Below are positions 1,275 through 4,199 of a stretch of 12,612 bases of DNA, in pieces. Source of the stretch: a virus; UHGV virus genome UHGV-1964375. One strand, written 5' to 3'. Both the position numbers and the translations under genes were made by a program. Under the pieces are notes generated by a model. That model was not told the origin of the DNA. It was given only the letters and a program-made list of their open reading frames with translations, and ran no database searches. How positions within the stretch are numbered: the stretch's first letter is position 1; each line of letters opens with the position of its first letter.

Positions 1275-1475
1275 TCAGGCAGCCTTGTTATTCTGTTTAC
1301 CAAGTTCTCTGGCAATCATTGCCGTTGTTCGTATTGCCCATTTATCGACATATTTCCCATTCTCCATTACAGGAAACATTTCTTCAGGCTTAACCATGCA
1401 TTCCGATTGCAGCTTGCATCCATTGCATCGCTTGAATTGCCCACACCATTGATTTTTATCAATAGTCGTAGTCAT
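1275..1475 (-). CDS. ral: restriction alleviation protein Ral (66 aa)
   Basis: MTTTIDKNQWCGQFKRCNGCKLQSECMVKPEEMFPVMENGKYVDKWAIRTTAMIARELGKQNNKAA matches my recollection of lambda Ral / Rac Lar almost residue for residue. Lies downstream of N in the pL operon. Confidence 0.65.
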   Translation of the reverse strand: MTTTIDKNQWCGQFKRCNGCKLQSECMVKPEEMFPVMENGKYVDKWAIRTTAMIARELGKQNNKAA

Positions 1476-1545
1476 ACGGATAGTCCTGGTATTGTTCCAT
1501 CACATCCTGAGGATGCTCTTCGAACTCTTCAAATTCTTCTTCCAT
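1459..1545 (-). CDS. possible 28-aa acidic, Tyr-rich micro-ORF between N and ral
   Basis: My own translation: MEEEFEEFEEHPQDVMEQYQDYPYDYDY. GAGGTGA SD 3-4 nt before the ATG. Starts 9 nt after the N stop and its TGA overlaps the ral start region. Confidence 0.25.
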   Translation of the reverse strand: MEEEFEEFEEHPQDVMEQYQDYPYDYDY

Positions 1546-1553
1546 ATCTCACC

Positions 1554-1880
1554 TCAAATAAGTGGTTTGCTGCCTAATTTCATTTTCTGGCGACCAACAC
1601 AAGTCACACCCATTTCACTGCGTGGCTTGCTGTACCATGTGCGCTTATTCTTTCGCTCAATACGTTGCAGGTTGCTTTCAATCTGTTCGTGGTATTCAGC
1701 CAGCACCGTAAGGTCTATCGGATTCAGTGCGCTTTCTACTCGTGATTTCGGTTTGCGATTCAGCGAGAGAATAGGGCGGTTAACTGGTTTTGCGCTTACC
1801 CCAACCAACAGGGGATTTGCTGCTTTCCATTCGGCCTGTTTAGCTGCGCGACGTTCGCGACGGCGTGTTTGAGAGTCCAT
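1554..1880 (-). CDS. N: antitermination protein N (107 aa)
   Basis: MDSQTRRRERRAAKQAEWKAANPLLVGVSAKPVNRPILSLNRKPKSRVESALNPIDL... is near-identical to lambda N, including the Arg-rich boxB-binding motif QTRRRERRA. Lies downstream of pL and nutL. Confidence 0.92.
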   Translation of the reverse strand: MDSQTRRRERRAAKQAEWKAANPLLVGVSAKPVNRPILSLNRKPKSRVESALNPIDLTVLAEYHEQIESNLQRIERKNKRTWYSKPRSEMGVTCVGRQKMKLGSKPLI

Positions 1881-1921
1881 ATATCATCCTCAGATAAATG
1901 GCCCCTCAGCGGGGCCGACAG

Positions 1922-2050
1922 TTATTGGCAGGTTGCGTACTTGCTGATGCAGGAGAAGATTTCCACGATTCGCGTCATTGTTGTTTCAGGACGCTTTGCT
2001 TCATCACGCATTGACTTCAACCAAGCCATAAAGTGTTCGTTATGTTTCAT
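1922..2050 (-). CDS. possible 42-aa ORF between the N-leader Shine-Dalgarno and the N gene
   Basis: My own translation: MKHNEHFMAWLKSMRDEAKRPETTMTRIVEIFSCISKYATCQ. Preceded by CACCACCAAAGCTAACTGACAGGAG, which I recall as the leader/SD that sits directly before N in lambda; here AGGAG is 6 nt before this ATG. Confidence 0.3.
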   Translation of the reverse strand: MKHNEHFMAWLKSMRDEAKRPETTMTRIVEIFSCISKYATCQ

Positions 2051-2221
2051 GTTCATCTCCTGTCAGTTAGCTTTGGTGGTGTGGTAGGTGGGAGACCCAT
2101 TTCGACCTGTTTCGGCCGACTTCAATTCGGCAATAGTTCCGCAGGCCTCGCCGCTTTACGTGCGACATATTCCCATCCATGAACCCTTCACCACACCCCA
2201 AAGCCTTCTGCTTTGAATGCT

Positions 2222-2252
2222 GCCCTTCTTCAGGGCTTAATTTTTAAGAGCG
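2222..2252 (-). promoter_or_regulatory. nutL: nutL (boxA CGCTCTTA, spacer, boxB GCCCTGAAGAAGGGC)
   Basis: The minus strand reads CGCTCTTAAAAATTAAGCCCTGAAGAAGGGC, matching the lambda nutL sequence as I recall it. boxB is at 2222..2236 and boxA at 2245..2252. Confidence 0.8.
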
Positions 2253-2291
2253 TCACCTTCATGGTGGTTAGTGCGTCCTGCTGATGGCTTA

Positions 2292-2320
2292 AAATTACAA
2301 GAAAGATTGTATGTTGTAAA
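2292..2320 (-). promoter_or_regulatory. pL early-left promoter (-35 TTTACA, 17-bp spacer, -10 TAATTT)
   Basis: The hexamers are read from the minus strand. OL1 lies in the spacer and OL2 abuts the -35, the usual lambdoid arrangement. Confidence 0.45.
2297..2310. promoter_or_regulatory. operator OL1 (434-type 14-bp site ACAAGAAAGATTGT)
   Basis: 14-bp ACAA-N6-TTGT palindrome of the 434 operator family. Confidence 0.75.
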
Positions 2321-2333
2321 CAAGAAATATTGT
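2320..2333. promoter_or_regulatory. operator OL2 (ACAAGAAATATTGT)
   Basis: 14-bp ACAA-N6-TTGT site, 9 bp from OL1. Confidence 0.75.
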
Positions 2334-2350
2334 AAATGGAGGTGCAAAAA

Positions 2351-2364
2351 ACAAACTCCATTGT
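2351..2364. promoter_or_regulatory. operator OL3 (ACAAACTCCATTGT)
   Basis: 14-bp ACAA-N6-TTGT site. The reverse complement is ACAATGGAGTTTGT. Confidence 0.7.
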
Positions 2365-2414
2365 TTTTAAACGGAAAATAGTTTGTTTTTGGGTTACTGA
2401 GATTGAGGTGGGGA

Positions 2415-3767
<1,353 letters not shown>

Positions 3768-3775
3768 GACATTCC

Positions 3776-3807
3776 CGCTCTTACACATCCCAGCCCTGAA
3801 AAAGGGC
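3776..3807 (+). promoter_or_regulatory. nutR: nutR (boxA CGCTCTTA, boxB GCCCTGAAAAAGGGC)
   Basis: CGCTCTTACACATCCCAGCCCTGAAAAAGGGC lies just after the cro stop, matching lambda nutR as I recall it. Confidence 0.8.
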
Positions 3808-3886
3808 ATCAAATTAAACCACACCTATGGTGTATGCATTTATTTGCATACATTCAATCAATTGTTATCTAAGGAAATACTTACAT

Positions 3887-4165
3887 ATGCAACTTACAAG
3901 TACTCGCAAGAAAGCGAATGCAATTACAAGCAACATCCTGAATCGAATTGCTGTACGTGGTCAGCGAAAGGTGGCCGACGCGTTAGGGATTAATGAATCG
4001 CAAATTTCACGATGGAAAGACAGCTTCATCCCAAAAATGGGAATGCTTCTGGCTGTTCTTGAATGGGGTGTTGAAGACGAGGAGTTGGCGGAACTGGCTA
4101 AGAAAGTAGCCAGAATGCTGACAAAAGAAAAAGCCCCGAAGAACGGCGAATTCTTCGAGGCCTGA
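3887..4165 (+). CDS. cII: transcriptional activator CII (92 aa)
   Basis: Internal Met of ORF 3827..4165, with AAGGAAAT upstream. [41 protein letters not shown] parallels lambda CII ([25 protein letters not shown]). Confidence 0.85.
3920..3933 (-). promoter_or_regulatory. pRE -35 region / CII binding site (TTGC-N6-TTGC)
   Basis: The minus strand reads TTGCTTGTAATTGC inside the 5' part of cII, antisense to it, which is where pRE sits in lambda. Confidence 0.55.
4122..4161 (-). terminator. intrinsic terminator antisense to the cII 3' end (oop-RNA-like terminator)
   Basis: Minus-strand 11-bp stem (one mismatch) with a 7-nt loop, followed by UUUUUCUUUUG. A possible -10 (CATAAT, minus strand, plus coordinates 4197..4202) would give a transcript of about 70 nt. 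Confidence 0.5.
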
Positions 4166-4199
4166 TGTAGAAAGACTGGATCAATCCACAGGAGTAATT

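Follow-up and report, generated by a model that had tools for sequence, protein, structure and literature searches.

The DNA analysed here is a stretch of 12,612 nucleotides from the virus genome UHGV-1964375 (hereafter the window), and its early region contains a 42-codon open reading frame (ORF) between the leader of the antitermination gene N and N itself. The host element of this small ORF is an imm434-type lambdoid prophage. Its repressor (2816..3448, minus strand) and Cro (ending at 3767, plus strand) are presumably the proteins of phage 434, judging by their translations. The early-left operon lies on the minus strand, as do all further features described below. Past the repressor there are operator-like ACAA..TTGT repeats, followed by the start of the pL transcript (ATCAGCAGG, about 2285) and by nutL, with its boxA (CGCTCTTA, 2252..2245) and its boxB hairpin (GCCCTGAAGAAGGGC, 2236..2222). 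In an alignment the pL start and boxA are the same as in the leaders of lambda, CL707 and Louie, and the CL707 record has pL, boxA and boxB annotated at homologous positions. The boxB hairpin is present in the minimum free energy (MFE) and centroid folds, as is the long N-leader stem (2205..2069), in which GGCTTTGGGGTGTGGT is paired with ACCACACCACCAAAGCT and the interior is a mosaic. The N gene (1880..1554) encodes a lambda-type antitermination protein of 108 amino acids with the N-terminus MDSQTRRRERRA (PF11438, N36, E-value 1.7e-23).

Between the leader and N there is a cassette of 184 nt (2055..1872), which has no counterpart in the lambda-type N regions of sequenced phages and stands where lambda has 15 nt joining the N leader to N. 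The leader is common to the window, lambda, CL707 and Louie up to CAGGAGA, and in the aligned sequences of those three phages AATCCAG-ATG(N) comes next. In the window the 3' end of the leader, CACCACCAAAGCTAACTGACAGGAG, stops at 2057. The megablast homology to phage records ends at 2056 on the leader side and restarts at 1871, which is codon 4 of N; from that codon on, the gene has 95-97.5% DNA identity with the N genes of HK542, Sf101, CL707 and other phages. The cassette consists of the 42-codon ORF, a GC hairpin, a Shine-Dalgarno sequence (SD) GAGGA and codons 1-3 of N. These three codons lie inside the non-homologous segment and read MDS instead of MDA. The cassette is bordered exactly by the ancestral SD of N on one side and by codon 4 of N on the other, and its junctions fall at SD and ATG microhomologies, with CAGGAGA as in lambda on the left and ATGGA followed by three diverged codons on the right.

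The SD GGAG (2060..2057), which in lambda is the SD of N, here is the SD of the small ORF and stands 6 nt from the ATG at 2050. N has a new SD, the GAGGA of the cassette (1891..1887), 6 nt from its own ATG at 1880. The first-pass annotation of this DNA had taken the lambda leader to end directly at the N start codon, which is not accurate, as lambda has a 7-nt spacer after the SD. Its description of the window itself holds: the leader SD precedes a different ATG, at 2050 (with a further ATG at 2056), which opens the 42-codon ORF, and N follows behind the hairpin and its own SD, with 41 nt between the ORF stop and the N ATG, where about 40 had been estimated. N does not begin further upstream either, since there is no in-frame start above the ATG at 1880. 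The two genes are in different frames, with 170 nt between their ATGs.

The 191-nt cassette is found at 100% identity in 8 out of 5,426 complete E. coli genomes, and the ordinary leader-to-N junction in 616 of the same genomes. In 13 further loci, which include several immunity regions and three leader interiors, the ORF is always positioned 41 nt ahead of a lambda-type N. The cassette DNA in these loci is invariant or one base off, and its flanks are variable. Neither blastn of 1885..2056 nor tblastn of the ORF and of the related protein P0017 gave a real match in 50,697 phage records.

One of the collected loci (L021) has a homologous small-ORF cassette bracketed by a 14-nt direct repeat, GGAGGTCAACATGA, which contains an SD plus an ATG (3986-3999 and 4161-4174 of that locus). 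The repeat points to recombination at translation-initiation microhomology, by which the cassette was inserted or exchanged. The same locus has a second small insert (3740-4000) between the leader stem and the small ORF, with an 11-codon ORF (MRRQSLNNENI) and a strong 9-bp hairpin (AGCCTCTCG/CGAGAGGCT). The stretch from the leader stem to N looks like a hot spot where small cassettes accumulate. In two other prophages, from E. coli Ecol_545 (L001, 6192-8780) and E. coli C1 (L009, 3130-5760), the insertion sequence ISEc12 (IS21 family, istA/istB) sits about 25 nt into N, just past the small ORF and the hairpin. The Prokaryotic Genome Annotation Pipeline (PGAP) calls a 109-aa 'N' downstream of ISEc12, and these two prophages are probably N-defective.

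The small ORF extends over 2050..1922 including its stop codon (1924..1922) and encodes MKHNEHFMAWLKSMRDEAKRPETTMTRIVEIFSCISKYATCQ, a protein of 42 amino acids with the motif KHNEHFMAWLK, which is discussed below. The ATG at 2050 is the likely start, because it lies 6 nt after GGAG, is used by PGAP and other gene callers, and agrees with the homologues, which begin with MKHN; the in-frame ATG at 2056, which would give a 44-aa version, is too near to the SD. In the PGAP annotation the product is a 'hypothetical protein' (WP_000682198.1). The exact protein was found on 296 contigs, together with six single-residue variants, one of which is from Klebsiella aerogenes. With a word-indexed protein search only the ORF's own cluster was found. 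phmmer over 1.84 billion representatives detected relatives of 40-57 aa at 40-67% identity, and a profile search led to a family of 40 clusters, including proteins from Citrobacter and several Pseudomonas species. Two large proteins in the phmmer list, P0012 and P0016, were rejected as repeat artefacts. The family alignment has a fixed start MKHNEH, the residues E17, A18, R27 and I31 are invariant, and N4, H6, W10, L11, L14, E30 and Y38 are nearly so. No model in Pfam, NCBIfam or PHROGs covers this family.

Selection was assessed with Nei-Gojobori counts. As the E. coli and Klebsiella copies (13 loci) are near-invariant at the DNA level, the ratio of non-synonymous to synonymous substitution rates (dN/dS) can be read only against more distant relatives. 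Against a group with 71% identity, the proportion of differing synonymous sites (pS) is 0.60-0.69, that of non-synonymous sites (pN) 0.17 and dN/dS 0.11-0.16. Against the Citrobacter group the synonymous sites are saturated (pS 0.81-0.86) with a pN of 0.21. The check for conservation of the reading frame that the first-pass annotation had proposed gave 0 non-synonymous and 2-5 synonymous differences within groups, and the protein-level conservation bears out its suggestion of an additional small gene between nutL and N. From the family alignment, AlphaFold2 predicts that the protein folds as a helical hairpin (residues 5-19 and 25-41 helical), with a predicted local distance difference test (pLDDT) score of 91.7. 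The purifying selection shows that the ORF does not stand open merely by chance, and by these comparisons it is almost certainly a genuine protein-coding gene.

The relatives are the first genes of early-left operons, where they precede lambda-type N, P22-24-type and other N genes, unknown genes, and CsrA-like or Arc-like genes. In the 71%-identical group, 36-39 nt separate the small gene from the N gene that follows, which is of three different kinds (P22 gene-24-like and others); a long leader stem and a GGAGG SD again come first. In the Citrobacter group the gene is the first one past the immunity region, yet it lies upstream of the leader stem, and unknown genes of 57-100 aa are found 160-240 nt downstream. 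A CsrA-like gene follows P0040, and an Arc-like gene follows P0021. The 45-aa Pseudomonas branch is found in long one-directional arrays of small unknown genes, in DNA resembling integrative and conjugative elements (ICEs) and in megaplasmid DNA, without N; the neighbours of these arrays include UvrD, MvaT, DotM, RadC, UmuDC, ParA and an integrase. In the P. syringae plasmid pMG4_1215 (1-2861 of the collected locus) about 20 small hypothetical genes form an array around a 45-aa member that is not annotated. This array begins right after a trio of nucleotidyltransferase, ThiF-type adenylyltransferase and MPN-protease genes, which resembles a cyclic-oligonucleotide-based anti-phage signalling system (CBASS).

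What these contexts have in common is not N but a place among the mobile-element accessory genes that are transcribed first or early. Because relatives precede genes other than N or sit in Pseudomonas ICE and megaplasmid arrays, the function of the ORF appears to be independent of N. Such a place is in keeping with anti-defence and speaks against a leader peptide.

The known protein that the family resembles is Stp ('suppressor of three-prime phosphatase') of phage T4. Stp was described in 1995, reportedly both as an anti-restriction peptide against type IC enzymes and as what triggers the abortive-infection nuclease PrrC. It has so far been regarded as a trait of T-even and a few other virulent phages. 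In the PHROGs search, phrog_6763 (T4 Stp; 'activator of host PrrC lysyl-tRNA endonuclease') was the best or second-best weak match for three out of six family members. P0019, P0009 and P0038 matched it at E-values of 0.04-0.11, with residues 3-10 against profile positions 5-12. The Stp sequence that we used as a query was confirmed by tblastn, which found it 100% identical in T4-like phages beside ndd and annotated as stp in T2. In BLASTP comparisons, Stp and the family member P0011 share 9 identical residues out of 13 (E-value 3e-6), and Stp and the window ORF share 5 identical and 8 similar residues out of 11 (E-value 1e-3).

We compared the family alignment (34 sequences) with a Stp alignment of 7 sequences, which included Stp-like peptides of 25-27 aa from six other phages. 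hhalign aligned family columns 2-12 with Stp positions 4-14 at a probability of 95.4% and an E-value of 1.9e-8. The score was 34.3, and 200 column shuffles of the family alignment gave a mean of 8.0, a standard deviation of 2.0 and a maximum of 16.9. Family residues 2-12 read KHNEH[VF]MxWLx and the Stp core is HNEH[VI]MQ[FWL][YH]R. The window allele keeps H3, N4, E5, H6, M8 and W10 of this core. Judged by the profile and pairwise alignments, the motif is very probably truly common to the family and Stp.

Stp, a peptide of 26 residues, counteracts restriction by type IC enzymes (EcoprrI, EcoR124I), whereas type IA restriction is unaffected (PMC3014915). Its loss-of-function (suppressor) mutations are concentrated in residues 4-14, and removal of eight C-terminal codons lowers the activity just moderately (PMC3014915). 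Since the match covers the residues of the clustered mutations at the same N-terminal distance, the family appears to have precisely the functionally important part of Stp.

Literature searches gave no report of Stp relatives in lambdoid phages, and 'Stp-like' annotations in T1-like phages alone turned up. Stp-like peptides of 25-27 aa are scattered in the unrelated phage groups Drexlerviridae, Kagunavirus and Skatevirus; the Stp motif is thus mobile. In most of the siphovirus records inspected these peptides are without annotation. One example is Escherichia phage PH1062 (Drexlerviridae), where a 25-aa Stp-like ORF (MSSHHNEHVMQLYRHNLKSHGRLGK) lacks annotation and has a GC hairpin and an SD-ATG stretch behind it (301-440 of the collected locus, L025). 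The 3' flank of this stp, GGCCC-ATTTA-GAGG-TGATATATG, resembles window positions 1905..1878, GGGCC-ATTTATCT-GAGGA-TGATATATG. The local alignment score is 27, shuffles give 12.5 +/- 2.1, and 0 of 2,000 shuffles reach the observed score. This resemblance was picked post hoc among six loci and is suggestive only. A MAFFT alignment of the PH1062 stp region with the window was uninformative, and local alignment was obtained in the 3' flank alone.

We propose that the product of the ORF is an extended Stp-like early anti-restriction or anti-defence micro-protein, the first to be made from pL, whose gene has captured the ribosome-binding site of N. Judged from sequence comparison, the chances that this proposal is right in full are evenly balanced, and an anti-restriction or anti-defence function as such is a tentative assignment that falls a little short of even. 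According to the proposal, the 184-nt cassette with ORF, hairpin and new SD would have been inserted between the old SD of N and codon 4 of N. The small gene would then be the first cistron of the pL transcript and take over the old ribosome-binding site of N, 12-13 nt past the leader stem, and N would be translated from the SD that the cassette brought along. The predicted two-helix micro-protein, whose residues 2-12 are like the Stp core 4-14, would have the action of Stp: once the phage genome is transcribed, it would attach to a type I restriction-modification complex, or to a related defence complex, and put it out of action, before N and independently of N. Any RNase III-dependent or N-dependent control of the old initiation region, as in lambda, would now fall on the small gene.

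The micro-protein would also be a complement to Ral, the product of a gene further along this operon. The known restriction-alleviation gene ral (66 aa, 1475..1275) lies downstream of N and matches PF11058 (Ral) over its full length with an E-value of 1.2e-47. Ral acts on type IA enzymes by stimulating modification. Ral and a Stp-like product would be complementary, because Stp has no effect on type IA enzymes (PMC3014915). In a wider version of the proposal, the unannotated 'long Stp' family would serve temperate phages (as the first cistron of pL), conjugative elements and megaplasmids, from Escherichia to Pseudomonas, as a general first-in module against restriction. The cassette of the window would in addition have rewired the control of N: the ribosome-binding site regulated by RNase III and N would have passed to the anti-defence gene, a terminator-like hairpin would stand between nutL and N, and N transcription would become N-dependent in a positive feedback. 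We regard this wider version as unlikely.

Several points weigh against a Stp-like function. phrog_6763 has no match to the window ORF itself at an E-value of 1 or below. Relative to the Stp invariants, the window allele has three substitutions (V9 to F, Q11 to A and R14 to K; its own F7, A9 and K12). The shared motif comprises just 11 residues, and convergence or a common structural N-cap is possible instead of a shared target. The family proteins have 42-45 aa with a second conserved helix (E17, A18, R27, E30, I31) that is absent in Stp, and the interaction surface of the family may differ from that of Stp. Foldseek against BFVD and the Protein Data Bank (PDB), as well as sequence searches of the PDB, gave no match with an E-value below 1, and neither Stp nor the family has a solved structure; a 42-aa helical hairpin is too generic for a fold search. 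A phage without the repair enzymes Pnk and Rnl would face PrrC if it carried a true Stp. The mechanism of Stp itself is still unknown (PMC12707154).

The alternative that survives best is that the ORF encodes a real early small protein with another target, such as another defence system, a host process taken over as by Kil or cIII, or a factor that works with antitermination complexes, and that the likeness to Stp is a helix-capping motif. The reality of the gene speaks for this explanation, and lambdoid early-left operons are full of small host-directed proteins, with cIII, Kil, Ral and Gam present in neighbouring loci. Conservation of the second helix equals that of the Stp-like motif. The enterobacterial loci very often have the gene directly before N, but the contexts without N speak against an N-specific partner. 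A helix cap does not readily account for a match on exactly the genetically important residues of Stp, at the same distance from the N-terminus, or for an hhalign score far above the shuffle null. We consider another target a possible explanation, on the doubtful side.

A second alternative is a regulatory leader, in which the ORF and the hairpin mainly control N; the first-pass annotation had likewise considered a translated leader that couples or attenuates N translation. The GC hairpin GGCCCC-GCTGA-GGGGCC (1916..1900, 6 bp, -14.7 kcal/mol alone) is followed by ATTTATCT. In one version of this explanation, formation of the hairpin depends on translation of the ORF as far as its UAA, which is 5 nt away, and a terminator-like hairpin between nutL and N makes N transcription N-dependent. 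In the other version, translation of the ORF decides whether the 3' arm of the hairpin pairs with the AUG of N. The position of ORF and hairpin between nutL with the leader stem and N is suitable for such a control, and the ORF has taken a ribosome-binding site that in lambda is under RNase III and N control.

As a terminator, the hairpin passes a loose scan with 6 out of 6 GC pairs, but it has a poor U-tract: 5 of 8 bases in the tail ATTTATCT are T, and an A adjoins the stem (A then UUUAUCU). The same scan gave 3 sites in the region, with 1.7 +/- 1.5 expected, and the terminator and promoter scan found no such site between pL and the ORF. In the fold that includes N codons 1-4, the MFE structure (-22.2 kcal/mol) pairs UGAGGGGCCAU with AUGGACUCUCA and leaves the SD in a loop, and the paired N codons (GAC UCU) are those that differ from lambda. 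However, the alternative fold that pairs the AUG is not better than shuffled sequences (z -1.64, 13/200).

The hairpin is also not a conserved partner of the ORF, a candidate role that we rejected because other family loci, among them those in which the ORF directly precedes another N gene, lack the hairpin or have a different one. Only the window (z -1.68) and the P0019 group (z -4.84 and -2.0) have a better than shuffled fold in the 45 nt past the stop; z is -0.76 and +0.23 for the P0017 group, which is also found before N genes. Among the family loci compared, a stable post-stop hairpin is present in the window allele and the Citrobacter group only. The selection acts on the amino-acid sequence, the family occurs without N, and N is read in another frame than the ORF, 41 nt past it and from an SD of its own. 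With the peptide conserved, relatives before unrelated genes and the hairpin not conserved, coupling or attenuation of N is not supported as the primary role, and a mainly regulatory leader is quite improbable.

Two further roles of the hairpin were considered and rejected. It is not a nut element, as there is no boxA upstream of 1916 (GCAACCTGCCAATAACTGTC) and its loop is GCUGA; the true nutL is at 2252..2222. An RNase III-type processing site, which the first-pass annotation had suggested, does not fit either. RNase III needs roughly two helical turns of double-stranded RNA, about 20 bp or more (imperfect), for which 6 bp are too short; the long stem at 2205..2069 fits instead as the RNase III-type element. 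The hairpin is an allele-specific cassette boundary and at most serves as a weak terminator or 3' stabiliser of a short early transcript. A secondary effect on N dosage is possible but unsupported.

The last alternative, a spurious ORF or decaying remnant that is open by chance in a non-coding insertion, could draw on the DNA invariance of the E. coli copies and on the six protein variants, which are all single non-synonymous changes, but it is next to negligible, as homologues at 40-74% identity keep length, start and frame with saturated synonymous sites and a dN of about 0.2, and the structure prediction is confident.

The remaining features of the region concern the leader and the neighbouring genes. 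We take the stem at 2205..2069 to be the RNase III-type structure of lambda-like N leaders. In the window and the homologous leaders of L001, L002, L004, L015, L019 and L022, its closing helix (GGCUUUGGG... / ...CCAAAGC) is kept across six leader versions with unrelated interiors. The inner bases of the stem change compensatorily, for example GUGUGGU/ACCACAC versus AUUGGAU/AUCCAAU. An Rfam search of 1500..2500 gave no family, the leader stem included.

An extremely acidic 28-codon ORF (MEEEFEEFEEHPQDVMEQYQDYPYDYDY, 1459-1545, minus) begins 9 nt past the N stop, runs into the start of ral and is without a Pfam match. Next to two genes of (putative) anti-restriction, an acidic early peptide might be a product of the DNA-mimic kind, or nothing. 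Another ORF (2415-2891, minus) is located downstream of cI, in the rex position, and has a signal-peptide or lipoprotein-like start. It has no Pfam match either, and in related prophages the gene callers give versions of 103 and 134 aa. This ORF is probably a secreted or membrane moron expressed in the lysogen.

If the proposed Stp-like function is true, the family, which is at present 'hypothetical' in RefSeq and absent from Pfam, PHROGs and NCBIfam, would be a new entry in the catalogue of anti-defence proteins, and it would offer a tractable handle on how type I enzymes are disabled by the HNEHVM motif. The locus would also be an example of a cassette that captured the regulated start site of N, a key regulator of lambda. 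Even if the function is not confirmed, the result is a correctly identified small gene that annotation pipelines handle unevenly. To the known Stp it adds a longer putative relative that can be folded confidently, is widespread in temperate phages, ICEs and megaplasmids, and would be transcribed first after DNA entry.

Compared to T4 Stp, the family has the core HNEH[VIF]M-x-[WF] at the same offset from the start and is likewise a very small early phage product. Stp and its like have 25-27 aa with a variable, dispensable C-terminal tail, whereas the proteins described here have 42 aa (45 aa in the Pseudomonas branch), and the equivalents of Q11 and R14 are not conserved in them. The family is found in pL operons of temperate phages, in ICEs and in megaplasmids, not in virulent phages. 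Lambda Ral is comparable as a small anti-restriction product of the same early-left operon, but it has no sequence similarity to the ORF and is encoded downstream of N. With respect to the lambda N leader, the window keeps boxA, boxB, the closing stem and the SD almost base for base; the difference is that this ribosome-binding site now serves the small gene and that N has another SD, its start being 41 nt past the small-gene stop. Small-ORF cassettes bounded by stem-loops, or morons, are known from other phages, for example the promoter-early stem-loop cassettes of T4-type phages. Like these, the cassette is a self-contained ORF with a stem-loop between two conserved genes, its DNA is identical across differing immunity regions, and the homologous cassette of locus L021 is bracketed by the 14-nt repeat GGAGGTCAACATGA. 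Unlike the classic lysogenic-conversion morons, it has no promoter of its own and is expressed from pL, so that it would be silent in the lysogen.

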